DNA from: Candidatus Woesearchaeota archaeon
GTDB taxonomy: Archaea; Nanobdellota; Nanobdellia; UBA10117; CAYGVN01
Assembly: GCA_964353445.1 (NCBI GenBank)
Contig: CAYGVN010000023.1
Coordinates: 1 to 10,314, forward strand
Length of the DNA: 10,314 nucleotides
Reading direction: 5' to 3'
Position 1 is the first letter of the stretch, and every line of letters begins with the position of its first letter. Shown here piece after piece: positions 1 to 10,314 of this stretch. Made by a program: the position numbers and the translations under genes. The notes beneath the pieces were generated by a model. It made no database searches and was not told the origin of the DNA. It saw only the letters and a program-made list of their open reading frames with translations.

Positions 1-58
1 CTGGTAGAACGCTCGCATGGCATGCGAGAGGCCTCGGGTTCAAATCCCGACCAGTCCA
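1..58 (+). tRNA. tRNA-Ala (anticodon GGC), 5' part cut off by window edge
   Basis: Anticodon arm ctcgc-ATGGCAT-gcgag (12-28) with GGC at 19-21. Variable region aggcc (29-33). T arm tcggg-ttcaaat-cccga (34-50). Acceptor 3' strand ccagtcc (51-57) has U at position 70 (t55), the partner of the G3:U70 alanine identity pair. Discriminator A58; CCA not encoded. Confidence 0.85.
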
Positions 59-72
59 CTATTTAATGACAA

Positions 73-246
73 GCCGAGGTAGTTCAGTGGTAGAACACCA
101 GTCTCATACGGCAGCCTTTCTTTTTTGCGAAAGAAAGTCTCCCGGGCATCCAAAGAAAACGCTAGTGTATCGCTAACGCGATACACAAAGGATGCTCGCA
201 GAACTGAGTAAGCTGGATGTCGTGAGTTCGACTCTCACCCTCGGCA
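73..246 (+). tRNA. tRNA with CAU anticodon (elongator Met, or Ile2 if C34 is modified), interrupted by a 102-nt intron at 37/38
   Basis: Acceptor gccgagg (73-79) pairs fully with cctcggc (239-245). D arm gttc-agtggta-gaac (82-96). Anticodon stem ccagt (98-102) / gctgg (212-216), CAT at 105-107. Variable atgtc (217-221). T arm gtgag-ttcgact-ctcac (222-238). Discriminator A246. G1:C72 and the absence of a GGG/CCC anticodon stem argue against an initiator. Mature length is 72 nt after removing 109-210. Confidence 0.85.
109..210 (+). other. BHB intron of tRNA-CAU, 102 nt, internally structured
   Basis: 3-4-3 bulge-helix-bulge. The outer helix is the anticodon stem. 3' bulge taa (209-211), central helix ctca (103-106) / tgag (205-208), 5' bulge tac (107-109). 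Cutting after the second bulge nucleotide on each side gives 108|109 and 210|211. Internal helices: 116-123/130-137, 143-151/190-198, 165-173/178-186. Confidence 0.8.
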
Positions 247-252
247 TTAATC

Positions 253-1476
253 ATGGAACCCAAGACAGACATGGAGAAAACAAAGGAAAGGTGGGATATT
301 ACCAAGAAGTATCTCAAAAAAGCAGCAAAATTTACTAGGGACAAACTGATTCTTATCCGTCCCCTGAGCAAAAGGGAGGAATTTCAGCTTAGCAAAGTAA
401 ATCCTTACCTGTCTCCTAAAGAGCTTAAGCTATTGGTCAGTTTTATTAAACAGAAAAAGGCGAGCATAAACCTCAATAGGCTTGGCTGGTCTTTTCTTAT
501 AAGCGGAAAGGACTTGCTGCCTGAATTAATTTCAGATGCAAAAGAAATTCAGGAATTGAATGAGAAAATACAAAAAATATTTTACAAGGAAAGATTTGAG
601 GAATTTTCAGAGCGTGCTTTTGGAATCCTTCCTCAGCTTATTGCTCCTAATTTGGTTGGTTTATTGCATGCCAAGCAGGCTGCTGCTCTCCAGCTCTTTT
701 CTACAGAGCCGATTCACATTTTGCTCTTGGGAGACCCAGGAACAGGCAAGACAGAAATAATCCGCTCTGCAGCTGAACTTGCGCCGATTTCATCTTTCGG
801 GCTGGGAAGCGGAACATCTGGAGCAGGATTGTCAGCTACAGTTGAAGGAAAGAAGATTCTTCCAGGCCTTCTGCCTATGGCGCACAATGGAATCTGCTGC
901 ATTGACGAGCTTAACCTGATGAAAAAAGAAGACAGAGCTTCGCTGTACAATGCAATGGAAAAGGGCTTTGTTTCATACGATAAAGGCGGCAAGCACTATA
1001 AGTTTGATGCTAAGATTAAATTATTATCCACAGCAAATCCAGAAGGAGACAAATTTAAATCTTATAAACTTGAGGCAATTAAAGAACAGCTTCCTTTTGA
1101 TTCTGCTCTTCTCTCAAGATTTCATCTTATTTTGTTTATTAAAAAAGTAAGCCTGGAGAAATTTGCAGACATTGCTGAAAAGCTTATACTCAACGATAAA
1201 TCTCTGATAAATAAAGCAGATATTTCCTTTATTAAGAAATACATAGCATATGCAAGTAATTTGGACGCAAAGCTTCCTCATCACCTCAGCTCCAAAGTCA
1301 AAGAATTTGTAATGGAGTTAAAGAAAAATGAAGACAATCTGCCTTTTGAAATAACGCCGAGAACAATTCATGGAGTGCTTCGGCTTGCAAAAGCATCTGC
1401 GCTGATGGAACTGCGGGAAGAAATTGAGCCTAAGGATTTAGACAGAGTATTTAATATTTTTAACAAACAGCTTTAA
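253..1476 (+). CDS. MCM-family AAA+ ATPase, truncated form (AAA+ core only; no N-terminal OB/zinc domain, no C-terminal winged helix)
   Basis: 407-aa ORF. MCM-type motifs occur in canonical order: IAPNLVG..AKQAAALQLF, Walker A GDPGTGKT (aa 160-167, nt 730-753), SGAGLSA, Walker B CCIDELNLM with following DRASLYNAMEKG (aa 215 onward), sensor-1 STANP, arginine finger LLSRFHLI (aa 286-293), FIKKYIAYA, sensor-2 region ITPRTIHGVLRLAKA. Only about 125 aa precede the core and they contain no cysteine. An alternative start Met lies at nt 271. Confidence 0.8.
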   Translation: MEPKTDMEKTKERWDITKKYLKKAAKFTRDKLILIRPLSKREEFQLSKVNPYLSPKELKLLVSFIKQKKASINLNRLGWSFLISGKDLLPELISDAKEIQELNEKIQKIFYKERFEEFSERAFGILPQLIAPNLVGLLHAKQAAALQLFSTEPIHILLLGDPGTGKTEIIRSAAELAPISSFGLGSGTSGAGLSATVEGKKILPGLLPMAHNGICCIDELNLMKKEDRASLYNAMEKGFVSYDKGGKHYKFDAKIKLLSTANPEGDKFKSYKLEAIKEQLPFDSALLSRFHLILFIKKVSLEKFADIAEKLILNDKSLINKADISFIKKYIAYASNLDAKLPHHLSSKVKEFVMELKKNEDNLPFEITPRTIHGVLRLAKASALMELREEIEPKDLDRVFNIFNKQL

Positions 1477-1511
1477 TTATTATGAAAAAAATGTGTTGCA
1501 AAACTTCGCAC

Positions 1512-1517
1512 TTTTTT
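1512..1517 (+). terminator. Oligo-T (T6) tract, candidate archaeal terminator for the tRNA/MCM-like unit
   Basis: First run of at least 5 T downstream of the stop at 1474-1476. Archaeal RNA polymerase terminates at oligo-T tracts. No experimental support. Confidence 0.3.
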
Positions 1518-1577
1518 CCATTCCAACGACATTCGAAGAATTTCGTGGACCCACAAAAGCTTCGCTTTGGTTGGTTC

Positions 1578-1601
1578 CGAAAATTGGCTGCCCAATTTTC
1601 G
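1578..1601. repeat. Perfect 10-bp inverted repeat (hairpin or palindromic site) abutting the GT2 stop codon
   Basis: cgaaaattgg (1578-1587), loop ctgc (1588-1591), ccaattttcg (1592-1601). The GT2 stop codon is at 1602-1604. The repeat itself is certain; its function is unknown. Confidence 0.6.
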
Positions 1602-2294
1602 TTATTTCCAATACCCATTTGTTACAAGTTTTTGGCCTAATTTAATTCTGATATAATTTAGAATATAATATTTAAAGCTCATCAAATAGAAATTTTTTGC
1701 ATATCTTCTGTCAGATACCGGCATTTTAAGCTCTTTGAAAAATTTTACTCCTCCTTTTTTCCTTAGCCTATTACCCATGTCCCAATCTTCTAATATAGAT
1801 GTTTTAAATGGATTTTTCTCGAGAACTTCTTTTTTAAAAGTCATGTTTGCACCGCAGATAGACGGGCAATTAAAGTGTTGAAGAAATCTTGGAAGCCAAT
1901 TAGTGCATATTTTTAAAATACGCGCAACTTTTTTATTGCCACTATACGGAACAAGTGGACCACCTATGCAGATATTATTTTGCATCAAACTCAGGATTTT
2001 TTCTGTCCAGTCTGCAGGCGGTCTTGTGTCTGCATCGCAATAAGCAACAATATCCGCGGATGCCACTTTAAAACCCAGGTTGCGGGCATCGCATACACCA
2101 TTAGGCTTCAGCTCTAAGACTATTCTATCAGCATATTTTTTAGCAATTGAAAATGTTCTGTCAGAGGATTGACCGTCTACTACAATTATTTCAGGCCTTA
2201 TTTTTTGGCGGGCTATACATTTTAGGCACTCTTCTATCTCATTCTCTTCGTTTTTGGCAATTATCACTACTGAAAGTGCCGGTTGTTTTTCCAT
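1602..2294 (-). CDS. Family 2 glycosyltransferase (GT2)
   Basis: 230-aa ORF. N-terminus LSVVIIAKNEENEIEECL is typical of the GT-A fold. Also VVDGQSSDRT, a DxD-type CDADT motif, and a length typical of small GT2 enzymes. Confidence 0.85.
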   Translation of the reverse strand: MEKQPALSVVIIAKNEENEIEECLKCIARQKIRPEIIVVDGQSSDRTFSIAKKYADRIVLELKPNGVCDARNLGFKVASADIVAYCDADTRPPADWTEKILSLMQNNICIGGPLVPYSGNKKVARILKICTNWLPRFLQHFNCPSICGANMTFKKEVLEKNPFKTSILEDWDMGNRLRKKGGVKFFKELKMPVSDRRYAKNFYLMSFKYYILNYIRIKLGQKLVTNGYWK

Positions 2295-2302
2295 ACCTTT
2301 AC

Positions 2303-2335
2303 TTAAAAAGAGTTAAAAAACATAGTTTATAAATA
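2303..2335. promoter_or_regulatory. AT-rich divergent promoter region (candidate TATA boxes for tRNA-Thr and GT2)
   Basis: TTAAAAAA at 2313-2320 is centred about 28 nt upstream of the tRNA-Thr 5' end (2345). Palindromic TTTATAAA at 2326-2333 is centred about 35 nt upstream of the GT2 ATG (2294, minus strand). Assigned by sequence resemblance and spacing only. Confidence 0.35.
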
Positions 2336-2344
2336 TAATCTTAT

Positions 2345-2519
2345 GCCTCGGTGGCTCAGACGGTAGAGCGTTGCCTTGGTAACAGCAGCTTCTTTCTTTC
2401 GCGAAAGAAAGACGCTCCTGGGAATCTAGAAAGAAAGGCGTGCGACTTTTAGTCGCACAATACTGGGTTTCCACGGTCCAGAAAGGCAAAGGTCGCGAGT
2501 TCGATTCTCGCCCGGGGCT
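2345..2519 (+). tRNA. tRNA-Thr (anticodon GGU) interrupted by a 102-nt intron at 37/38
   Basis: Acceptor gcctcgg (2345-2351) / ccggggc (2512-2518) with one U-G pair. D arm gctc-agacggta-gagc (2354-2369). Anticodon stem ttgcc (2371-2375) / ggcaa (2485-2489), GGT at 2378-2380. Variable aggtc (2490-2494). T arm gcgag-ttcgatt-ctcgc (2495-2511). Discriminator U2519. Mature length 73 nt. Confidence 0.85.
2382..2483 (+). other. BHB intron of tRNA-Thr, 102 nt, related to the intron at 109-210
   Basis: The outer helix is the anticodon stem. 3' bulge aaa (2482-2484), central helix ttgg (2376-2379) / ccag (2478-2481) including one U-G pair, 5' bulge taa (2380-2382). Splice sites are 2381|2382 and 2483|2484; a one-nt shift gives the same product because of flanking A residues. 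Internal helices: 2391-2399/2404-2412, 2417-2427/2465-2476, 2440-2447/2451-2458. Confidence 0.8.
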
Positions 2520-2521
2520 TT

Positions 2522-3004
2522 CTATTTCAGAACTTTAATTGAAGGGTCTATGATTATTTCAATGCCTGCTTCCCTAAGCAGTTTTTCAGCCATTTCAAAA
2601 TTATATGGCTGATTGCGCAGTTTGGGAATAAGCTCATAAGTGTCTTTGTTCGAATATACTTCATCTGGAGTAATTAATTTAACCAGCCCCGCCTCGATAA
2701 TGGATTTTGCACAATCTGCACAAGGAAACCACTCATTTAAATATATATTTCCGCCTGAAGTTTTATAGCCAATTCGAGCAGCACGAGAGATTGCTCTTCT
2801 TTCTGCGTGAATTGTTGGGCAAAGATGCATCCCTTCTCCCGATGCATAGCCTTTTCTCAAACATTCACTGTGTTCAATTTTTATTGGAGGACCATTCCAT
2901 CCTGTAATATATCGCTGGTCAGCAGTTTCAATCAATGCGGCAACTGGATGCTTAAAACAAGCTCCTTCATCCAATGCTTCTTTTAGTAACTCATTGATTC
3001 TCAT
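2522..3004 (-). CDS. Deoxycytidylate (dCMP) deaminase, zinc-dependent cytidine/deoxycytidylate deaminase family
   Basis: 160-aa ORF with the catalytic signature HAERRAI followed by PCADCAKSI (HAE...PCxxC zinc ligands). The preceding CLRKG..SG...LC block is typical of dCMP deaminases. Its stop codon lies 2 nt from the tRNA-Thr 3' end (convergent). Confidence 0.85.
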   Translation of the reverse strand: MRINELLKEALDEGACFKHPVAALIETADQRYITGWNGPPIKIEHSECLRKGYASGEGMHLCPTIHAERRAISRAARIGYKTSGGNIYLNEWFPCADCAKSIIEAGLVKLITPDEVYSNKDTYELIPKLRNQPYNFEMAEKLLREAGIEIIIDPSIKVLK

Positions 3005-3029
3005 TACTACTTGTAATTCTAGAAGGGCA

Positions 3030-3040
3030 TTTATAAAAAT
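3030..3040 (-). promoter_or_regulatory. Candidate TATA box for the dCMP deaminase gene
   Basis: The minus strand reads ATTTTTATAAA. It is centred about 30 nt upstream of the ATG at 3004, which fits a leaderless or very short-leader archaeal mRNA. Confidence 0.45.
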
Positions 3041-3061
3041 TATTTAACAGAATAAAACAAA

Positions 3062-3676
3062 TTACTTCGCGCCGACTAATCTTTCCAAAGGACTTCTGCT
3101 CGTAGCGTGCTTAGTGAATGCCTGCTGGAAATCCTGCTTTTCAAGAATTTCTTCGTAGACTGAAATTGTTTCTTTCGGCACTAATTTTCGCCAAGGTCTC
3201 ACAGGTTTTTCATAAGCAGGTCGCTTGATAACATCTTGACAAGAATAATCAGGACGTTTAATTATATCATTGTAGAGAGATTCGCGAAATTCTGTTGCTG
3301 AAGTAAATGTACCTCTCTTGCGTTTTTTACATTTATAGTCATTAATTTTTGCAGCGAGTTTGTGAACAAAGTCTCCGCCATGATACACAGCATCTTGAGG
3401 CACATTAGATTTTATTCTATCTCGTCCTTCGATTATGTTTCTAGGGCTGGTCCATTTAATATAAAAAGAAAAAATATGAGCTTCATCTTCATCACAAAAA
3501 GCACGAATAACGTCATGAATCTCTTCGTATGTGAAAGGATTGTTAATGTTTCTTCCTTGAGGATGTACAATACCTATTGCAAATGGTTCAGGCATGGTTT
3601 TGAATAGATTTTCATGGTCTTTGTGGACCCCTTGGAATCTTCCTGTTGTCCACGACTTTATACTGGAAATATCCAT
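3062..3676 (-). CDS. Nucleotidyltransferase of the archaeal NMN adenylyltransferase (NMNAT)-like family, divergent
   Basis: 204-aa ORF. GRFQGVHKDH aligns to the archaeal NMNAT signature GRFQPFHKGH. NNPFTYEE aligns to ENPFTAGER, and TSATEFRE to the SxTxxR ATP-binding motif. The C-terminal approx 70 aa are basic and carry an imperfect repeat, DIIKRPDY / DVIKRPAY. Confidence 0.55.
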   Translation of the reverse strand: MDISSIKSWTTGRFQGVHKDHENLFKTMPEPFAIGIVHPQGRNINNPFTYEEIHDVIRAFCDEDEAHIFSFYIKWTSPRNIIEGRDRIKSNVPQDAVYHGGDFVHKLAAKINDYKCKKRKRGTFTSATEFRESLYNDIIKRPDYSCQDVIKRPAYEKPVRPWRKLVPKETISVYEEILEKQDFQQAFTKHATSRSPLERLVGAK

Positions 3677-3698
3677 AATTTATTGTCTAATAGTTATC

Positions 3699-3706
3699 TT
3701 TATAAA
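3699..3706. promoter_or_regulatory. Single palindromic TATA box (TTTATAAA) shared by two divergent genes
   Basis: Centre is at 3702.5. That is 26.5 nt from the minus-strand ATG (3676) and 27.5 nt from the plus-strand ATG (3730). It is the only strong TATA-like element in the 53-nt intergenic region. Confidence 0.5.
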
Positions 3707-3729
3707 TTGTATTTTTTTCTGTTAGAATT

Positions 3730-4050
3730 ATGGTAGTCAAAGTATACAAGGTTGAGAGAGCCAGTCTGAGCAAGCTGAAAGCTGTGCTGGAAGCCCAGGA
3801 GAAAGACGGCTTCATAAATGAATTTGCAAGGCACGGCTATAAACTCTGGGACGCAAAGACATTAGAGTTAGGCGGAGATGCATCATATCTTTACATAAAC
3901 GCTGAAAATGATTTTTTCAGCAGAAATGAAGGGAAACTGAAAATTACAGGTGTTCAGGCTCTCAGCGGAAAAGATTTGGAAAAAGTTAAAAAGAAAATAG
4001 AAGACGCAGAAGAAAGCGCTGAAGCTGGCTTGGGTGCTATATTCGGGTAA
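3730..4050 (+). CDS. Hypothetical 106-aa protein with a ribosomal-stalk-like acidic/hydrophobic C-terminal tail
   Basis: The ORF starts about 27 nt from the TATA box. The C-terminus EDAEESAEAGLGAIFG resembles the conserved tail of archaeal stalk proteins aP1/aP0 (acidic run followed by GLxALFG). I do not recognise the N-terminal approx 85 aa. Confidence 0.7.
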   Translation: MVVKVYKVERASLSKLKAVLEAQEKDGFINEFARHGYKLWDAKTLELGGDASYLYINAENDFFSRNEGKLKITGVQALSGKDLEKVKKKIEDAEESAEAGLGAIFG

Positions 4051-4063
4051 AAAAACATTTGTT

Positions 4064-4168
4064 GGGCCTGTGGTCTAGTGGTTATGACGTCGCCCTATAA
4101 AGTAAGCAAATTGTTTGCTTTAGGCGAGTACAAGGCGGAGGTCGCCAGTTCAAATCTGGCCAGGCCCA
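4064..4168 (+). tRNA. tRNA-Val (anticodon UAC) with a 32-nt non-canonical intron between positions 33 and 34
   Basis: Acceptor gggcctg (4064-4070) pairs fully with caggccc (4161-4167). D arm gtct-agtggtta-tgac. Anticodon stem tcgcc (4090-4094) / ggcgg (4134-4138). T arm gccag-ttcaaat-ctggc (4144-4160). Discriminator A4168. Removing 4097-4128 gives the loop CU-UAC-AA and a 73-nt mature tRNA. The exon sequence CCCUUACAAGGCGGAGGUC resembles archaeal tRNA-Val sequences as I remember them; I could not check this against a database. Confidence 0.75.
4097..4128 (+). other. Non-canonical BHB intron of tRNA-Val (32 nt)
   Basis: Inner helix taaag (4098-4102) / cttta (4118-4122). 5' bulge cta (4095-4097). 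Central 4-bp helix cgcc (4091-4094) / ggcg (4123-4126). 3' bulge agt (4127-4129). Outer helix is only 2 bp (4089-4090 / 4130-4131). Cuts after the second bulge nucleotide fall at 4096|4097 and 4128|4129. Confidence 0.7.
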
Positions 4169-4179
4169 CTTAAACAAAA

Positions 4180-4809
4180 ATGGACATAGGAAAATTGCTT
4201 TTTTCGTACAGCGAAAGAAAAGATGAAATTAAGGATAAACTAAAAGAATTCAGAGAAAATTGGAACAAGCCTGATAAGAAAATTTTTTCTGAGCTTTGCT
4301 TCTGCATCTGCGTTCCCCAGTCAAGAGCTGAGCTATGCGAAAAGGCAGTTTCAGAGCTTTCAAAAAGTGAAATTCTTTACACAGGCTCTGAAAAGCAAGT
4401 AAGAGACGGATTGAAAGGTGTGAGGTTTCCAAACAATAAAACGAGATTTATTCTGGAAGCAAGAGATTATTTTTCTTCTGGCAGCAAAATAAAAAGCAAG
4501 TTAAACACAGAAGATATTGCCGGCTTGAGAAACTGGCTAGCTGCCAATATCAGCGGGCTCGGCTACAAGGAATCCTCTCATTTTCTCAGAAATATAGGAT
4601 TTGGAAAAGATCTGGCGATTTTGGACAGGCACATTTTGAAAAACCTGAAACGTTATGGAATAATCAGTGCTATTCCAAAAACATTGACAAAGAAGAGATA
4701 TTTAGAAATCGAAGAAAAGATGGTAAAATTCTCTGAAAAAATCGGAATTCCCCTCGGAGAATTGGATTTAGTTCTCTGGTCAGAAGAAACAGGTAAAATT
4801 ATTAAATAA
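4180..4809 (+). CDS. ogg: 8-oxoguanine DNA glycosylase / AP lyase, archaeal Ogg2 family (HhH-GPD superfamily)
   Basis: 209-aa ORF, the length expected for Ogg2. It has FCICVPQS, the helix-hairpin-helix with catalytic Lys GLGYKESSHFLRNIG, and the Asp motif LAILDRHI. The start codon is 11 nt after the tRNA-Val 3' end. Confidence 0.85.
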   Translation: MDIGKLLFSYSERKDEIKDKLKEFRENWNKPDKKIFSELCFCICVPQSRAELCEKAVSELSKSEILYTGSEKQVRDGLKGVRFPNNKTRFILEARDYFSSGSKIKSKLNTEDIAGLRNWLAANISGLGYKESSHFLRNIGFGKDLAILDRHILKNLKRYGIISAIPKTLTKKRYLEIEEKMVKFSEKIGIPLGELDLVLWSEETGKIIK

Positions 4810-4823
4810 CTTAATCTTCTAAA

Positions 4824-5225
4824 CTATCTTTTCCATTTTTTAATAAAGGGTGAAAAATCGACTTGATATTTTGGTATTCCTATAGAAATTCCGTATTTTG
4901 TTGCTTCTGCATACTGCTGCTTACTTGCTCTATCTATTCTAAATATCTTATTTCTAAATATTATAAAATGTGTCTTATCATTCTTAAAATCCGCATACCA
5001 CTCACCATGTTTAGAGTCTAATGATTTGCTCAATTCTTCCGCAATTTTATCAGCTTGATTTTCTGGAACTTCAACAGTATGTAATGTCCATTGTTTTAGA
5101 TATGGTGTGTGATGCTTCTCGGTGACTTTTTCAATTTTGGTTTTGAGAATTTTAACTTTCTTCAGAACTTCTTTATTCTCAAGGCTTTCTTCAATTAGTA
5201 CGCCAATAAAACTTTTCTGTTTCAT
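4824..5225 (-). CDS. Hypothetical protein (133 aa), last gene of the minus-strand RNR/cobalamin run
   Basis: Long ORF with no competing frame. Its ATG is 12 nt downstream of the ferredoxin stop. I recognise no motif. Confidence 0.6.
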   Translation of the reverse strand: MKQKSFIGVLIEESLENKEVLKKVKILKTKIEKVTEKHHTPYLKQWTLHTVEVPENQADKIAEELSKSLDSKHGEWYADFKNDKTHFIIFRNKIFRIDRASKQQYAEATKYGISIGIPKYQVDFSPFIKKWKR

Positions 5226-5237
5226 GATTCAATTTAT

Positions 5238-5408
5238 TTAAGCTGTTATCGCCCCGACAGGGCAAGCCTCAGCAGCTGCCTTCAGGTCGCATTTGCCTTT
5301 TTGGTTTTTGACATGTGATTTGCCGTCTGGCCCGAGCTCAAAGACATTCGGGCAGAGAGCCACGCAGGCTCCGCATCCAATACATTTTGACTTATCAACT
5401 TTTACCAT
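5238..5408 (-). CDS. Small single-cluster ferredoxin (56 aa), not in the supplied ORF track
   Basis: Hand translation of the minus strand: MVKVDKSKCIGCGACVALCPNVFELGPDGKSHVKNQKGKCDLKAAAEACPVGAITA. CxxCxxC...CP plus a distal C...CP matches small Pyrococcus-type ferredoxins. GAGGA lies 5 nt upstream of the ATG. The ATG overlaps the upstream gene end as ATGGTAA. Confidence 0.8.
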   Translation of the reverse strand: MVKVDKSKCIGCGACVALCPNVFELGPDGKSHVKNQKGKCDLKAAAEACPVGAITA

Positions 5409-5920
5409 TCTATTCCTCTTTTGGCAGCCGGGAATTTCTTCGGCTGCTTAATCAGCTGTATTTCGTTTACGAAATCTGCTCTGTTTATTAATTCCTTTGT
5501 AGCATATCTGCCTGTTAAATAAACTGTTGTTGATGAAGGAACTATATTCAGAAAATCTATTATATCTTTTGTTTTCAGCAGGCCTCCGTGAACAGCAAGA
5601 TTAATTTCATCAAGAATCAGCAGAAACGGCTTCTTGTTAAGAGATTTGTAGGCAAATTCCAGACCTTTTTTTGCAAGCTGATAATCAACTGGCTTGAGAC
5701 TTTTTGGGTCTACAAATTCTTTTCTGCCAAACTGGTGTATTTCATAGTACGGACTGAGTTTTTTAGCAATTTTATACTCGCCAATATCCTTTCTTCCTTT
5801 CAGAAATTGAATAATAATTACTTTCCTGCCCTGGCCGACAGCACGCAGGGCAACTCCAAGGGCGCTGCTTGTCTTGCCAGCTCCCATTCCTGTCCATAAA
5901 TAAACTAATCCATGTTTCAT
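5402..5920 (-). CDS. cobA: ATP:cob(I)alamin adenosyltransferase, CobA/CobO/BtuR family
   Basis: P-loop GMGAGKTSSALG followed by RAVGQGRKVIIIQFLKG, then LLILDEINLAV, YLTGR and C-terminal GIEW. This order parallels Salmonella CobA. I prefer the start at 5920 (MKHGLVY), 1 nt after the nrdJ stop. The ORF-track start at 5980 would overlap the nrdJ 3' end by 59 nt. Confidence 0.8.
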   Translation of the reverse strand: MKHGLVYLWTGMGAGKTSSALGVALRAVGQGRKVIIIQFLKGRKDIGEYKIAKKLSPYYEIHQFGRKEFVDPKSLKPVDYQLAKKGLEFAYKSLNKKPFLLILDEINLAVHGGLLKTKDIIDFLNIVPSSTTVYLTGRYATKELINRADFVNEIQLIKQPKKFPAAKRGIEW

Positions 5921-5921
5921 C

Positions 5922-8015
5922 TTAAGCGTAAATTGGGCATGTTCCTGTCGGGCAGCCGCCTGCAAATTCTGACTCTGCATGCAGCATTTCTTTTTCTCCT
6001 ATATAGAGAACCTGCTCAGGCTTGCTGCCATAGCGGTAAACAGTTATGCCCTTGCACTTTAGGTTGTAAGCAAGCTCATAGGCTTTGGCGACATCAGCCA
6101 CGCCTGCTTTAGCCGGGAGATTTATTGTTTTTGACACAGAATTATCTGTGTATTTTTGGAAAGCAGCCTGCATCTTGACGTGCCATTCAGGCGCTATTTC
6201 AAGGGCTGTAACAAAAAGTTTTTGGATGTCTTTAGGCACGCCTTTCATTTTTTGAACAGAACCTTTTTTTGCGATGTCCATCATTAATTGGGCGGAGTAA
6301 AATCCTTTTTCTTTTGCTGTGTGCTCAAATATCCTGTTAATTTCAAGCAGCCTTCTGTCAGTCAGAACTTTTCTCACAAAAGAAATCGCAAACAACGGCT
6401 CGATTCCGGAAGAGACTCCGGCAATTATGCTCAGTGTTCCTGTCGGGGCTATAACTGTCGTTGTTGCATTTCTCATTGATTTATGTCCCTGCTTCTGCCA
6501 TAAAGATCCATGGAAGTTCGGGAAAGATCCTCTTGATGCTCCCAACTGCACCGACGCTTTACGGGATTCTTCGGCTATGAATTTCATTATTTTCTCTGCA
6601 GATTGCAGGGCTTTGGCTGAATTGTAAGGAATCTTCAGCAAGACAAACATGTCTGCAAGGCCCATAACGCCCAAGCCGATTCTGCGGTTTGCCTTTGTTG
6701 CACTTTCTATTTCAGGCAGCGGATAGACATTTGCATCTATTACATTATCTAAAAAGCGGACAGCTATTTGGACAGTTTTTTTCAATTTATCAAAATCAAT
6801 TTCATATCTCTGCCCTTTCTGTTTTAACATCTTGGTTAAATTAATAGAGCCAAGATTGCAGCTTTCATAAGGATGCAGATTTACTTCACCGCAAGGATTC
6901 GTGCTCTCAATCAGGCCTATGTTTGAAGTTGGATTTCTTCTGTTGATTTCATCGATGAATATAACCCCTGGGTCGCCTGTTTTCCAGGCAGACTCTGCAA
7001 TCAATTCCCAGACTTTTCTTGCATTTAATTTGCTGACAATTCTTCTATTTCTCGGGTTAATTAATTCATAATCTTTATTTTCCTTGACAGCCTGCATGAA
7101 TTTATCTGTAACTGCAGCTGAGATATTGAAATTGCTCAAGAAGCCCTTGCGCTGTTTTGCAGTTATAAATTCCAGAATATCCGGATGGTCTACTCTGAGA
7201 ACACCCATCATTGCTCCTCTTCTTTTTCCTCCTGCTTTAATAACATCTGTTGCTGTGTCAAAAACCCGCATGAAGCTTACAGGACCGCTGGCAACACCCA
7301 TTGTGCTCCTGACAATGTCGCCTTTTGGCCTCAGCCTTGAAAAAGAGTAGCCAACACCCCCGCCAGACTGCTCAATCAGTGCTGTTTGCTTTACAGCAGA
7401 AAAAATGCTGTCAAGCGAGTCTTCTATAGGAAGGACAAAACAGGCGGATAATTGCTTCAACGGCGCGCCTGCATTAAATAAAGTCGGGGAATTCGGCAGA
7501 AATTCAAGCTTGGACATTATTCTGAAAAAGTCGTCTTCTGCTTTGCGGGCATCTCCCTGATATTTTTTTTCAGCAGCTGCAACTGCCCGTGCAACTCTCC
7601 TGAACATCTGGCCTGGAGTTTCTATAATTTTTCCAGCTTCATTTCTTAAAAGATACCTGCGCTCGAGAACAGCCATTGCATTGTATGTAAGTTTTTCTTC
7701 AATGCCAAAAATCTCCCTTGCTCTCCTGATTTCAGCTTTCTTTTGCCTGAATTCAGCATAAATTTCTGCAACTCTTTTATTCCAGCCCTTAAGAACTTCT
7801 TCAACAATATTCTGCACGTCTTCTACAGAAGGAATTTTCTTTTCAAATCTGACAGCAAGTATGCTCACAACCCTGTCAGACAGCTTTTTTGAAGCCTTTC
7901 CGTCAGACACCCTTGCATCAAATAATGCCATATGAATTGCATGAGTGATTCTAGACTGGTCGAAATGGACTATACTGCCGTCTCGTTTTTTAATTTTTGT
8001 AAGTTTGGTGGCCAT
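5922..8015 (-). CDS. nrdJ: Class II (adenosylcobalamin-dependent) ribonucleotide reductase
   Basis: 697-aa ORF. ATP-cone-like N-terminus KIKKRDGSIVHFDQSRITHAI. Catalytic cysteine loop ESTNPCGEV. C-terminal redox tail GGCPTGTCPIYA. Overall class I/II large-subunit-like sequence with no separate radical-generating subunit gene nearby. Confidence 0.9.
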   Translation of the reverse strand: MATKLTKIKKRDGSIVHFDQSRITHAIHMALFDARVSDGKASKKLSDRVVSILAVRFEKKIPSVEDVQNIVEEVLKGWNKRVAEIYAEFRQKKAEIRRAREIFGIEEKLTYNAMAVLERRYLLRNEAGKIIETPGQMFRRVARAVAAAEKKYQGDARKAEDDFFRIMSKLEFLPNSPTLFNAGAPLKQLSACFVLPIEDSLDSIFSAVKQTALIEQSGGGVGYSFSRLRPKGDIVRSTMGVASGPVSFMRVFDTATDVIKAGGKRRGAMMGVLRVDHPDILEFITAKQRKGFLSNFNISAAVTDKFMQAVKENKDYELINPRNRRIVSKLNARKVWELIAESAWKTGDPGVIFIDEINRRNPTSNIGLIESTNPCGEVNLHPYESCNLGSINLTKMLKQKGQRYEIDFDKLKKTVQIAVRFLDNVIDANVYPLPEIESATKANRRIGLGVMGLADMFVLLKIPYNSAKALQSAEKIMKFIAEESRKASVQLGASRGSFPNFHGSLWQKQGHKSMRNATTTVIAPTGTLSIIAGVSSGIEPLFAISFVRKVLTDRRLLEINRIFEHTAKEKGFYSAQLMMDIAKKGSVQKMKGVPKDIQKLFVTALEIAPEWHVKMQAAFQKYTDNSVSKTINLPAKAGVADVAKAYELAYNLKCKGITVYRYGSKPEQVLYIGEKEMLHAESEFAGGCPTGTCPIYA

Positions 8016-8036
8016 TAAGAGGAAGAAGAAATTCCA

Positions 8037-8045
8037 ATTTATTAA
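8037..8045 (-). promoter_or_regulatory. Candidate TATA-like box upstream of nrdJ
   Basis: The minus strand reads TTAATAAAT, centred about 26 nt upstream of the nrdJ ATG (8015). It lies just downstream of the nrdG stop codon (8049-8051). This call is weak because the background is AT-rich. Confidence 0.3.
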
Positions 8046-8048
8046 GCT

Positions 8049-8771
8049 TTACTCAAGGGATGAAAATTTTCCTCTAAATTTTGTGTTTGGGACATTGTCC
8101 TGTGCTGCGTTTACAAAAGCTCTAATTTGTTTTTCATCAAAAGGCTTTAGGCTGGAGCAGCTTGCATCTAAAGTATTGTAGCTGACAAAATTTTGTATAA
8201 AATACCGGCGGCTACCTCTTATGTTGACTGAAATCTGCCTTATGTCTGCTGTGGTGTGCAGGCTGGGAACAACAGTTGTTCGGAATTCATAGTCTACAGG
8301 ATTTGTGAGCAAATATCTTGCGCTGTACTTAACTGCTTCAAAAAGCACTTCGCTCTTAATACCGCAGGCTTTTGAATAGGCGTTGAAATCCAACGGCGCC
8401 TTGATATCCATTGCAACATAGTCTACCAATTTAGAATTAACAAGCTGCTTGAGCATATTCGGATTTGTGCCGTTTGTATCAAGCTTTATGCTTATTCCTA
8501 TATCTTTTATTTTTCGGCAGAGTTCCGGCAAGTCAGGGTGAATAGTCGGCTCTCCGCCAGTTATGACCACACCATCGATAAAATCTTTATTAAATTCCAA
8601 AAACGTCTTGACTTTAGAAAATGGTATTGTCTGGAATTTTTTAGGCGCCTGTACAAGCTTGAAATTATGGCAGAAAGGGCATCTGAAATTGCAGCCAGGC
8701 AGGAAAATCACAGCTGAAACCTTGCCGTCCCAGTCTAAAAATGACGTTTCTAAAAAACCCTTAATTTCCAT
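8049..8771 (-). CDS. nrdG: Anaerobic ribonucleotide reductase activating protein (radical SAM)
   Basis: 240-aa ORF. The N-terminus MEIKGFLETSFLDWDGKVSAVIFLPGCNFRCPFCHN carries the CxxxCxxC radical-SAM cluster motif in the NrdG-type context. ITGGEP is also present. nrdD lies next to it. Confidence 0.85.
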   Translation of the reverse strand: MEIKGFLETSFLDWDGKVSAVIFLPGCNFRCPFCHNFKLVQAPKKFQTIPFSKVKTFLEFNKDFIDGVVITGGEPTIHPDLPELCRKIKDIGISIKLDTNGTNPNMLKQLVNSKLVDYVAMDIKAPLDFNAYSKACGIKSEVLFEAVKYSARYLLTNPVDYEFRTTVVPSLHTTADIRQISVNIRGSRRYFIQNFVSYNTLDASCSSLKPFDEKQIRAFVNAAQDNVPNTKFRGKFSSLE

Positions 8772-8792
8772 GTTATTTATTTGGACGTTAAA

Positions 8793-8802
8793 TTTTTAAA
8801 AA
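8793..8802 (-). promoter_or_regulatory. Candidate TATA box upstream of nrdG, inside a 14-nt AT palindrome
   Basis: TTTTTAAAAA (8793-8802) sits within the perfect palindrome aatttttaaaaatt (8791-8804). It is centred about 26 nt upstream of the nrdG ATG (8771). Confidence 0.35.
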
Positions 8803-8805
8803 TTC

Positions 8806-9090
8806 CTAAGCTGAACCGTGTTCAGCTTGGCCCATCGAAAGCAGAGCTTTCGATAGGGTTTCACTTGAAGGAATTTCTCCTCTCCAGCCAGTTACTTCCT
8901 GCTCTTTGTTGTCAACTATAATTATGCTGGGGGTGGATAGAACAGAAAAGAAAGCTGCTTCTGCGAGCCCGTCCCTGCCGCCGATATCCCAGTATTCTAC
9001 TTTTATGTTCTGCTTCTCTAACTCTGCGCCCAGCTCTTTTGCTGCCGGGCATTTCGGACATGTTTTTGAAACAAATATTTTTATTACCAT
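8806..9090 (-). CDS. Small thioredoxin-fold redoxin (glutaredoxin/NrdH-like), CPKC active site
   Basis: 94-aa ORF. MVIKIFVSKTCPKCPAAKE has the beta1-CxxC-alpha1 arrangement. STPSIIIV matches the cis-Pro loop region of the thioredoxin fold. Confidence 0.8.
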   Translation of the reverse strand: MVIKIFVSKTCPKCPAAKELGAELEKQNIKVEYWDIGGRDGLAEAAFFSVLSTPSIIIVDNKEQEVTGWRGEIPSSETLSKALLSMGQAEHGSA

Positions 9091-9093
9091 TTT

Positions 9094-9163
9094 AATTCAC
9101 TTCTCTTTTGCCTGTGAATTGAAACCAGCGAATTTGCACTGCAAATTCGTGCAGTTTATTCAC
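9094..9163 (-). promoter_or_regulatory. Structured intergenic element between nrdD and the redoxin gene (palindrome plus three mutually complementary heptamers)
   Basis: Perfect 10+1+10 palindrome cgaatttgca-c-tgcaaattcg (9129-9149). It is flanked by aaac (9122-9125) / gttt (9154-9157) and gtgaat (9114-9119) / attcac (9158-9163). A third copy, aattcac (9094-9100), is also complementary to gtgaatt (9114-9120). The structure is seen directly; its function is inferred. Confidence 0.4.
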
Positions 9164-10314
9164 CCAAAGTGTTCTGTACTCCTGTACCTGTCTCTAAGCT
9201 CAGCTATTTTGCCTTTGTTCCAGCTGCTCGTCTTCGAGAAAAACCCTGTTACTCTTGTAATCCCTTCAACTTTCTTTGAGCCGCAGAACTGGCATTTAGC
9301 CTTGATACCCCTGCCAACTTTCTGGCAGTCCAGACAGCTTGTAAATTCTGGGCTGAAAGCAATTTGGTCGTTCAATGTATTATAAAATGTCTTTTTGACA
9401 AAGTTTGCAATTGATTCTGGATTAGGCGAGCTTTCTCCGAGCCAGACATGAGAGAGCGAGCCTGCTTCTATCATAGGATGGAAAAGTCCTTCTGATTTTA
9501 CTCTTTCTATCGGGCTAATTGGAGTGGATATATTCAGGTATGTAGAATTTGTGTAGTACACTTCATTCTTTCCTACATTCCCTTTTACAACCTGGCTGGC
9601 CTGTATTGGAGAGCTCTTAAGGTCAAGCTTAGCCAGTCGATAGGCAGTTGATTCTGCAGGGGTTTGCTCTAGGACAAAATGCATGCTGTGTTCTTTTTCT
9701 AAGCGCTCGCATTCTTTTTTCATATGTGCAATTACTTTGAGCCCGAACTTGAGGGCTTCTGTTGATTCGTGCATCTGCTGCCCAAAGTGATATTGTACTA
9801 ATTCATTCAGGCCCAGCATGCCAATCAAGAAAGTTGCTCTGTGCAGCCTTAGATAGCGCTCGCCATCAAGATTCATTGCCAAAAGATTAAGAGGGCCTTT
9901 GTTTTCTAGATTAATCAGCTTTTCTATGAATTTCTTTTTTTGCTCGTGCGCTTTTGCAGCCAGCTCCATCCGCTGGGTTATTATCTCAAACAATCTGTTG
10001 TCATCCCTGTCTGCTTCAAATGCTGCTCTCGGCAGATTGATTGTTACATTCTGCAGTGCAGAAAATCTCATTTTCCAAGGCTGTTTCGCATCTTCTATGT
10101 CAGAGCGCTCCAGCTTGAAGGCTAAACGGCAGCACTCGGAAATTTTTGCTGTCTGGCCCCTGTCAAAAACGTAATAGGTGTTGCCTTTTTCTGCTGATAC
10201 ACTTGAAATTAAATTCAAGAATTCTTCATGCCCTTCTGTATTGAAAAATCGCTCTGTCATGTGAACTTCCGGCTTTGGGAAGAAAAACGGACGGCCGACA
10301 GCATCTCCTTTATA
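9160..10314 (-). CDS. nrdD: Class III (anaerobic, glycyl-radical) ribonucleoside-triphosphate reductase, C-terminal 384 aa; 5' end lies beyond the window
   Basis: The frame stays open from 10260 to the window edge (YKGDAVGRPFFFPKPEVH precedes the ORF-track Met). C-terminal zinc ribbon CLDC...CQFCG, followed by the glycyl-radical motif ITRVTGFFS. ISECCRL is a probable catalytic Cys loop. Confidence 0.9.
   Translation of the reverse strand, partial: YKGDAVGRPFFFPKPEVHMTERFFNTEGHEEFLNLISSVSAEKGNTYYVFDRGQTAKISECCRLAFKLERSDIEDAKQPWKMRFSALQNVTINLPRAAFEADRDDNRLFEIITQRMELAAKAHEQKKKFIEKLINLENKGPLNLLAMNLDGERYLRLHRATFLIGMLGLNELVQYHFGQQMHESTEALKFGLKVIAHMKKECERLEKEHSMHFVLEQTPAESTAYRLAKLDLKSSPIQASQVVKGNVGKNEVYYTNSTYLNISTPISPIERVKSEGLFHPMIEAGSLSHVWLGESSPNPESIANFVKKTFYNTLNDQIAFSPEFTSCLDCQKVGRGIKAKCQFCGSKKVEGITRVTGFFSKTSSWNKGKIAELRDRYRSTEHFG

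Follow-up and report, generated by a model that had tools for sequence, protein, structure and literature searches.

Is an archaeal protein that ends in the docking peptide of the ribosomal stalk necessarily a stalk protein, and if not, what might such a tail do on another scaffold? This question is raised by a gene for a 106-residue protein in a stretch of DNA of 10,314 nucleotides (nt), here called the window, from a Candidatus Woesearchaeota archaeon (GenBank assembly GCA_964353445.1, contig CAYGVN010000023.1, positions 1 to 10,314 of the forward strand). A preliminary description, made from the sequence alone, had termed the protein an orphan and had offered two explanations for it: a highly divergent stalk protein, or a free-standing mimic of the stalk tail. 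In archaea and eukaryotes, no element other than the peptide at the C-terminus of P0, P1 and P2, the stalk proteins, is known to bring all translational GTPases as well as ABCE1 to the ribosome; to our knowledge, and judging by the literature searched, this peptide has been reported for stalk proteins alone. What we report here is a widespread, so far unannotated archaeal family in which an unrelated small domain is joined to a stalk-type tail. The parts of the window gene on which the argument turns are:

3730..4050, + strand: coding sequence of the 106-residue protein including the stop codon, ATG to TAA (list of open reading frames, ORFs, and sequence)
3730..3966, + strand: ferredoxin-like α/β domain, residues 1-79 (AlphaFold2)
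3817..3867, + strand: best-conserved N-terminal patch, residues 30-46, NEFARHGYKLWDAKTLE (column conservation)
3967..4044, + strand: one continuous C-terminal helix, residues 80-105, leading from the domain into the tail (DSSP on the AlphaFold2 model)
4000..4047, + strand: stalk-type tail EDAEESAEAGLGAIFG, residues 91-106 (hhalign to aP1, scoring matrix, tail census)

The stalk-type tail and its own signature

The reading frame and the tail were confirmed as first described: the translation of the ORF ends in …KKKIEDAEESAEAGLGAIFG, with the last 16 residues encoded by nt 4000-4047, and a 99%-identical copy of the protein is present on two independent metagenome contigs. With the archaeal stalk protein aP1 (L12e/P1; PF00428; arCOG04287) it shares a length of about 100 residues, an acidic composition and an acidic run followed by Gly-hydrophobic-x-x-hydrophobic-Phe-Gly-COOH. 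The likeness of the tail to that of aP1, claimed in the preliminary description, exceeds chance. The 12 C-terminal residues of 120 genuine aP1 proteins, namely the best 120 of 7999 aP1 matches, which belong to Thermococcales, Sulfolobales, Halobacteria and similar groups, were made into a position-specific scoring matrix (PSSM). The window protein scores +13.2 on it; 4830 unrelated ORFs, taken from about 1 Mb of archaeal DNA, have a median of −44 and reach +1.1 at most. When the family is aligned to aP1 by hhalign, only columns 92–106 align, to aP1 residues 95–108, at 60% identity and a pairwise E=4.8e-4. The Pyrococcus horikoshii aP1 sequence used as reference agrees fully with 3A1Y, a structure of the N-terminal domain, over residues 1–58, and its residues 77–108 match the peptide of 3WY9, a structure of the C-terminal peptide with aEF1A. 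Position by position, the tails compare as follows:

aP1 E96, window protein E94: matched
aP1 L100, window protein E98: differs
aP1 L103, window protein L101: matched
aP1 L106, window protein I104: conservative change
aP1 F107, window protein F105: matched
aP1 G108, window protein G106: matched, at the true C-terminus

Ito et al. 2014 (PMC4267659) showed that any one of the substitutions L103S, L106S and F107S is enough to abolish the binding of aP1 to aEF1A, that aEF2 makes use of these residues as well, and that the effect of L100S is moderate; E96 is described as conserved and Leu106 as 'strictly conserved', and a salt bridge links the terminal carboxylate of G108 to aEF1A. The C-terminal 18 residues of aP1 suffice for ABCE1 binding via L103, L106 and F107, single mutations at which abolish ABCE1 activation, and the stalk motif has been named L/GXXLF (Imai et al. 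2018, PMC6125642). The window protein thus has counterparts of E96, L103, L106, F107 and G108, and its tail falls in the same docking-motif class as those of aP0 (uL10) and the eukaryotic P1, P2 and P0.

The preliminary description had called for a survey of homologs for conservation of the tail. In an unbiased census of 151 members, collected by sequence search and not by tail pattern, the tail is kept in 141. Two types are distinguished: type A, G-Φ-G-x-[ILVM]-F-G, which includes the window protein (110 of the 151); and type B, G-Φ-[AS]-[LM]-F-[GD], which is shorter by one residue (31). Degenerate or truncated tails make up the other 10. Only Y37, G100 and F105 are conserved at 90% or more in the phmmer-only alignment, two of these three being in the tail, and hydrophobic residues occupy the positions equivalent to aP1 L103, L106 and F107 across the family. 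Canonical tails were sampled from 77 metagenomic aP1 genes (52 distinct tails) and the adjacent aP0 genes, the latter lying directly upstream of aP1 and ending in the canonical ...GLGALFG. These aP1 and aP0 tails have the consensus G-L-[GSA]-[AS]-L-F-G, with Leu before Phe always (52/52 distinct aP1 tails), whereas type-A tails have Ile before Phe in 77% of cases, an invariant Gly at −4 and most often Phe at the L103-equivalent. The tail of the family is, in other words, a conserved signature of its own, G-Φ-G-x-I-F-G, and not a copy of the stalk tail. With the tail kept in homologs, the second explanation first offered, a free-standing stalk-tail protein, survives the refutation by homologs without the tail that the preliminary description had foreseen; the word mimic needs qualifying because of the Ile, rather than Leu, before Phe and the invariant Gly at −4.

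A similar C-terminus was seen on one unrelated protein. On a contig of Aenigmatarchaeota (WJKS01000015.1; locus L041), 4192..4422 (− strand) encodes a protein of 76 residues that combines a double zinc ribbon (four CxxC motifs) with an acidic linker and ends in ...EEDVISGFSAMFG. It has no Pfam match, is unrelated to the family and ranks second of the 4830 non-family ORFs on the aP1-tail PSSM; a family member is encoded 3 kb away, at 7176..7469 (− strand). Because this zinc-ribbon protein ends in a similar tail, the tail may be a portable module or motif.

An unrelated α/β domain in a widespread archaeal family

The AlphaFold2 model of the window protein, obtained with a 62-sequence alignment as input, has a mean pLDDT (predicted local distance difference test) of 93.4. 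Its N-terminal domain is composed of β1 (residues 2–8), α1 (10–20), a short helix (31–35), β2 (38–41), β3 (52–58), α2 (60–70) and β4 (75–77), and is followed by the helix of residues 80-105, with block pLDDT values of 97, 89 and 74. The type-B subfamily, the most divergent one modelled, has the same topology, with a helix at 74-95 and the last 6 residues at pLDDT <50. In contrast, aP1 has a four-helix N-terminal dimerization domain (MEY[IV]YAALLL...) that binds the aP0 spine, and a long flexible hinge of 30–40 residues, rich in Ala, Pro, Gly, Glu and Lys, before its tail; in the family the tail continues a rigid helix. No Ala/Pro-rich flexible hinge is present in the window protein: the segment KDLEKVKKKIEDAEESAEA is without Pro and without an Ala/Gly run. 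The preliminary description had noted the lack of both an aP1-type N-terminus and a hinge; Pfam, hhalign, AlphaFold2 and Foldseek agree on the former, and for the latter helix 80-105 is unbroken. The profile search and structure prediction that it had proposed were run and yielded an α/β domain with no aP1 dimerization fold, and the short LKAVLEA match to aP1 that it had pointed out finds no support as homology, with no hhalign alignment in that region.

Foldseek searches of the PDB return generic ACT/PII ferredoxin-like neighbours only (best E=0.018, template modelling score 0.43–0.54), and no P1/P2 chain occurs among the best 50 of the 668 matches with E<=10. With ACT/PII-like proteins, such as TM1266 (PDB 2NZC) and GlnK/PII, the family shares the β-α-β-β-α-β topology over residues 1-79; this is a likeness at the level of the fold (16% identity), with no sequence relationship found, and none of these neighbours has a stalk-type tail. 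The same split β-α-β topology is found in another small archaeal protein of about 90 residues, aEF1B (EF1_GNE, PF00736), the nucleotide-exchange factor that binds aEF1A. Homology to aEF1B was ruled out: the hhalign probability is 0.1, there is no Pfam match, and one locus (L013) has a separate aEF1B gene at a distance of about 6 kb. As for aP0, there is a weak match (E=0.015) between the C-terminus of one family member and the final 46 positions of the archaeal L10 model in NCBIfam, but the family has neither the L10 rRNA-binding domain nor the spine helices.

Within the domain the most conserved patch, residues 30-46, has the family motif D-x-F-A-R-x-G-Y-x-L-[RK]-[DE]-[GA]-x-x-L-G. Column conservation in a 219-sequence alignment reaches 80% for R34, 74% for G36, 73% for Y37 and 84% for G46. 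The window protein carries the core D-x-F-A-R-x-G-Y...Y-L-Y-I, which is the family-defining N-terminal feature. In Thermoplasmata and Aenigmatarchaeota the motif of the patch takes the form '[LIV]SRQSI', in Methanoperedens the form 'FFKRLGY'.

The protein is not the orphan it had been called. A word-indexed search with the window protein finds only the 99% copy and one 45% homolog, and a scan of GTDB genomes with it as a single sequence finds no match. An exhaustive phmmer search of 1.84 billion representatives, however, recovers 70 clusters, mostly of 95–160 residues and aligned end to end, and a profile search recovers 83, to which over 100 more proteins in named genomes are added. Those of the 83 clusters that bear a taxon name are from Ca. 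Diapherotrites, Micrarchaeota, Anstonellales or Norongarragalinales or are labelled merely 'archaeon'; of those with a functional name nearly all are called 'hypothetical protein', with two carrying evidently spurious JGI names. One phmmer match, P0003 (6164 residues), is an artefact of low-complexity repeats.

A degenerate DNA pattern for the tail and the stop codon (E-x-x-A-x-x-G-h-G-x-I-F-G-stop) was scanned over one genome per GTDB species and matched at least 120 loci, with none being aP1 or aP0 among the matches listed. About 110 of the 120 listed are proteins of 93–130 residues with the same layout, and a handful are bacterial chance matches. The family lineages found in this way are Micrarchaeota, Woesearchaeota, Pacearchaeota, Aenigmatarchaeota, Thermoplasmata/Thermoplasmatales, DHVE2/Aciduliprofundum, Methanoperedens (including the RefSeq strain BLZ2) and Methanocellales. 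Besides BLZ2, complete or near-complete genomes with a family gene include CP058998.1 (Ca. Fermentimicrarchaeum limneticum), CP066684.1, CP070662.1, CAZYJW010000001.1 and JAWABJ010000001.1. A hidden Markov model (HMM) of residues 1–90, that is, without the tail, finds the family in at least 7 archaeal lineages and matches roughly 105 of the ~120 tail-pattern ORFs listed (E 1e-5 to 1e-31). Because this tail-less HMM recognizes nearly all of the tail-pattern proteins, domain and tail are judged to be inherited together across a large part of Archaea. In total there are about 250 homologs, which are acidic, probably cytosolic proteins of about 100 residues; the closest named relatives of the window protein, from Pacearchaeota and Nanobdellati, are ~40% identical to it.

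No model in Pfam-A or NCBIfam matches any branch of the family, PHROG and PADLOC give no match, and searches of PDB sequences with the single protein or a profile give nothing meaningful, the matches to a streptococcal adhesin, DnaK and YfiR having been dismissed on that ground. A viral or mobile origin and a defence role find no support: in 2.9 million viral contigs there are 0 relatives and 0 matches to the tail pattern, with PHROG and PADLOC blank. In the full texts searched, a non-stalk archaeal protein with a stalk-type tail is not described, though an anonymous arCOG, eggNOG or InterPro cluster identifier may exist; a recent paper on an archaeal hibernation factor concerns HibA, an HPF-CBS protein unrelated to the family.

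Gene neighbourhoods and possible roles of the tail

The gene for aP1 stands immediately 3' of aP0 in the L11-L1-aP0-aP1 cluster, and the family gene stands elsewhere. The position outside this cluster, remarked on in the preliminary description for the window gene, extends to the family: adjacency to aP0 or L11/L1 is absent from ~120 family loci, no family gene occurs in 0.49 Mb around 80 aP0-aP1 loci, and no aP1 N-terminal domain is encoded in 1.04 Mb of family flanks, where only ~0.5 would be expected by chance. The window itself gives no match to Ribosomal_60s (PF00428) even at E<=1 and is without aP1. No neighbour is universal to the family loci. Likely operon partners were counted as genes on the same strand within 200 nt: the S8e gene is 5 nt upstream of the family gene in 6 loci; the gene of the rRNA methyltransferase EMG1/Nep1 is immediately downstream in 9 loci (Thermoplasmatota); the further recurring partners are the CCA-adding enzyme (4 loci), an RMKL-like RNA methyltransferase (3) and aIF2β (1). 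In one lineage (L015, L016) the family gene is directly upstream of rpoH-rpoB-rpoA-L30e-NusA-S12-S7-aEF2, and in L013 aEF2 is, like the aEF1B gene mentioned above, ~6 kb away.

Two genes upstream of the family gene in a pair of Ca. Diapherotrites loci (L011/L012), 8377..9267 (+ strand) encodes a 296-residue protein, which is followed by a 196-residue protein without a match. The sole Pfam match of the former is EF-Tu domain 2 (PF03144, E=7e-9), a G domain not being detected; it may be a truncated translational-GTPase paralog beside the stalk-tail protein.

With a confidence somewhat short of even, we read the window protein as a free-standing protein whose tail docks on aEF1A, aEF2, aIF5B and/or ABCE1, as a competitor or an adaptor. 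The terminal helix would insert the side chains of L101, I104 and F105 and the C-terminal carboxylate into those pockets of the factors that normally receive the C-terminal helix of aP1 or aP0. As the tail extends a rigid helix instead of hanging from a long flexible hinge, protein and factor would assemble off the stalk into a defined 1:1 complex, and the protein would not 'fish' for the factor. It could then be a competitor or buffer that adjusts the amount of factor open to recruitment by the stalk; alternatively, it could be an adaptor that brings the factor to a partner of the N-terminal domain. Both the binding of factors and the choice between these roles are inferred from the sequence and its comparisons. 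Since an 18-residue aP1 peptide alone binds ABCE1, a short tail could plausibly work as a module on a foreign scaffold too. The tail is also the best-conserved part of the protein and ends, like that of aP1, at the true C-terminus, and translation and RNA-maturation genes are found among the likely operon partners.

Several observations weigh against such docking. The likeness to aP1 is limited to ~15 residues, and within them the family differs systematically from every canonical tail sampled: Ile replaces Leu106 in 77% of type A, as against Leu in 52/52 aP1 tails, and the Gly at −4 never varies. Where aP1 has L100, the window protein has a non-hydrophobic residue, and in type B (about one-fifth of the members) the missing residue alters the hydrophobic spacing. 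Neighbourhoods vary, with the majority of neighbours not being translation genes, and no canonical aP1 was seen in the window or in the family flanks, where again only ~0.5 is expected by chance. It may be that the differences in the tail reflect a different partner.

More tentatively, we envisage an archaeal trans-acting stalk-tail system, in which small non-ribosomal proteins, namely this family and possibly the zinc-ribbon protein, would capture aEF1A, aEF2, aIF5B or ABCE1 off the stalk. What appears to be new is the occurrence of a known stalk docking motif on an unrelated and widespread scaffold; its putative function is directly testable. The family would provide a natural tool and a testable hypothesis on how cells regulate the access of factors to the stalk, be it by competition, by buffering of the factor pool or by delivery of factors to pre-ribosomes. 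If docking is real, there would be an unrecognized layer of control over the translation-factor pool, with these proteins serving as decoys or buffers or as adaptors to ribosome biogenesis and tRNA maturation, and the stalk tail would work as a portable short linear motif. The family would also annotate a protein that is now 'hypothetical' in hundreds of genomes, and the Leu-to-Ile and Gly differences, being consistent, are a ready-made test of how specifically tail and factor recognize each other.

The explanation that survives best beside factor docking, though we think it rather unlikely, is that the tail is convergent or repurposed: it would serve a non-factor partner, self-association or the control of the protein's own N-terminal domain, and its likeness to the stalk would be uninformative on function. 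This would agree with the family's own signature G-Φ-G-x-I-F-G, as opposed to G-L-x-x-L-F-G in 52/52 distinct aP1 tails, with the type-B tail being shorter by one residue, with a likeness that spans 15 residues only and with the heterogeneous neighbourhoods; the hydrophobic stripe L83-V86-I90-A93-A97-L101-I104-F105 could equally support self-association as a coiled coil. However, an acidic run joined to Gly-hydrophobic-x-x-hydrophobic-Phe-Gly exactly at the C-terminus is a very specific combination: just one other protein among the 4830 unrelated ORFs scores near, and ~110 of the ~120 pattern matches listed belong to the family, the remainder being bacterial chance matches. The recurrence of translation and RNA genes among the operon partners also speaks against it. 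A membrane-targeting helix, for its part, was judged unlikely, in that the tail is preceded by an acidic and not a basic stretch.

Because of the linkage to S8e and Nep1, a location on the small subunit or the pre-ribosome is a serious variant of the docking reading. On this account, which we hold to be improbable, the N-terminal domain would anchor the protein to the ribosome or pre-ribosome, making it a lineage-restricted accessory ribosomal protein or a small-subunit biogenesis factor; the tail would be an extra factor-recruiting arm, bringing for instance aIF5B or ABCE1 to the small subunit, and the factor-binding step would be common to both accounts. Besides the positions of rps8e, 5 nt ahead of the family gene (6 loci), and of the gene of the small-subunit rRNA methyltransferase EMG1/Nep1, directly behind it (9 loci), the location upstream of rpoH-rpoB-rpoA-L30e-NusA-S12-S7 in L015 and L016, the small size of the protein and a strong TATA-like box at the window gene are consistent with it. 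These neighbour links are clade-specific and not universal, however, and the protein is acidic, with no recognizable RNA-binding domain; nor does any archaeal ribosome structure in the PDB match by sequence or fold, though the lineages with solved ribosomes may lack the family.

That the protein is instead the organism's stalk protein, a highly divergent aP1 with a replaced dimerization domain that binds aP0 in place of the canonical aP1, is very improbable: its size (~100 residues), acidity and tail are aP1-like and no canonical aP1 is present in the window, but it fails every testable defining feature of aP1 except the tail, the N-terminal domain being α/β and not four-helix in the AlphaFold2 models of both the window protein and type B, with no aP1 signal by Pfam, hhalign or Foldseek, no flexible hinge and no placement beside aP0 or L11/L1 in ~120 loci, and the family is present in Methanoperedens, Methanocellales, Thermoplasmata and DHVE2, where aP1 (arCOG04287) counts as universal among archaeal ribosomal proteins, as reportedly found by Yutin et al. 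2012.

The surroundings of the window gene and minor observations

The window gene stands between a nucleotidyltransferase gene and a tRNA, as had been described, with the former identified by weak matches:

3062..3676, − strand: weak nucleotidyltransferase-like protein gene, divergent, upstream (NCBIfam NMNAT subfamily, E=1.6e-5; PHROG cytidyltransferase, E=5.7e-4)
3699..3706, + strand: candidate archaeal TATA box TTTATAAA, centred ~27 nt 5' of the ATG (read from the sequence)
4064..4168, + strand: intron-containing tRNA, the downstream neighbour (Rfam, 55.5 bits; missed by ARAGORN)

The tRNA is followed by the gene of an Ogg-type DNA glycosylase (PF22175, E=3.4e-59), giving the local order nucleotidyltransferase-like gene, stalk-tail gene, tRNA, Ogg. 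The pairing with Ogg is common to the 'Nanobdellati' loci L023 and L054, with an Ogg identity of 55–56%. The distance of TTTATAAA from the ATG is the usual TATA-to-start spacing in archaea, on which ground a promoter role is predicted for it. No Shine-Dalgarno sequence was read between this box and the ATG; because of this and the ~27-nt distance, the predicted TATA box would drive a leaderless mRNA.

Four tRNA genes are found within 4.2 kb of the window, all on the + strand: 1..58 (clipped by the window edge), 73..246, 2345..2519 and 4064..4168. Rfam detects 4/4 and ARAGORN 0/4, and three of the four contain introns, of ~104, ~104 and ~35 nt. The Rfam alignments suggest the anticodons CAU for 73..246 and GGU or UGG for 2345..2519; brute-force excision of the introns is ambiguous. 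The two ~104-nt introns are alike in their 5' halves (approximately 108..165 and 2381..2440), with a conserved segment of ~55 nt, …GCAGC-TT-T-TTT-GCGAAAGAAAG…TCC-GGG-ATC…. That two different tRNAs have this 5' segment in their introns points to intron mobility or to descent from one intron.

Elsewhere in the window, 253..1476 (+ strand) encodes a 407-residue protein with the P-loop and lid domains of MCM only (PF00493, E=1.8e-37; PF17855) and without the usual MCM N-terminal domain, its top PHROG match being a DNA helicase (E=2.7e-55). A dense gene cluster for nucleotide reduction occupies 5402..10260 (− strand): it includes a cob(I)alamin adenosyltransferase, a class II ribonucleotide reductase with an ATP-cone (696 residues), a radical-SAM activase, a thioredoxin-like protein and an NrdD ORF. 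The last covers only positions 219-560 of the 562 in the model; because the match begins at position 219, the N-terminal third of NrdD would be either missing or encoded separately past an in-frame stop near the window end.

The family also includes several variants in domain architecture. In Aenigmatarchaeota (L056 and L125; CP066684.1) there are members of 190-194 residues, apparently with two tandem N-terminal domains and a single tail. Others have a CxxC...CxC zinc-ribbon insert after helix 1 (e.g. P0010, P0013, P0024) or a helical 'DPYLDP...' insert (P0056, P0065, P0069), the latter subgroup being the one that adjoins rps8e. A 154-residue member on a contig binned as Methanothrix sp. (L042; JAVYSI010000008.1) is nearly identical to the 'DPYLDP' variant of Micrarchaeota (L072, L114); this contig is probably mis-binned DPANN DNA, and the gene not one of Methanothrix.

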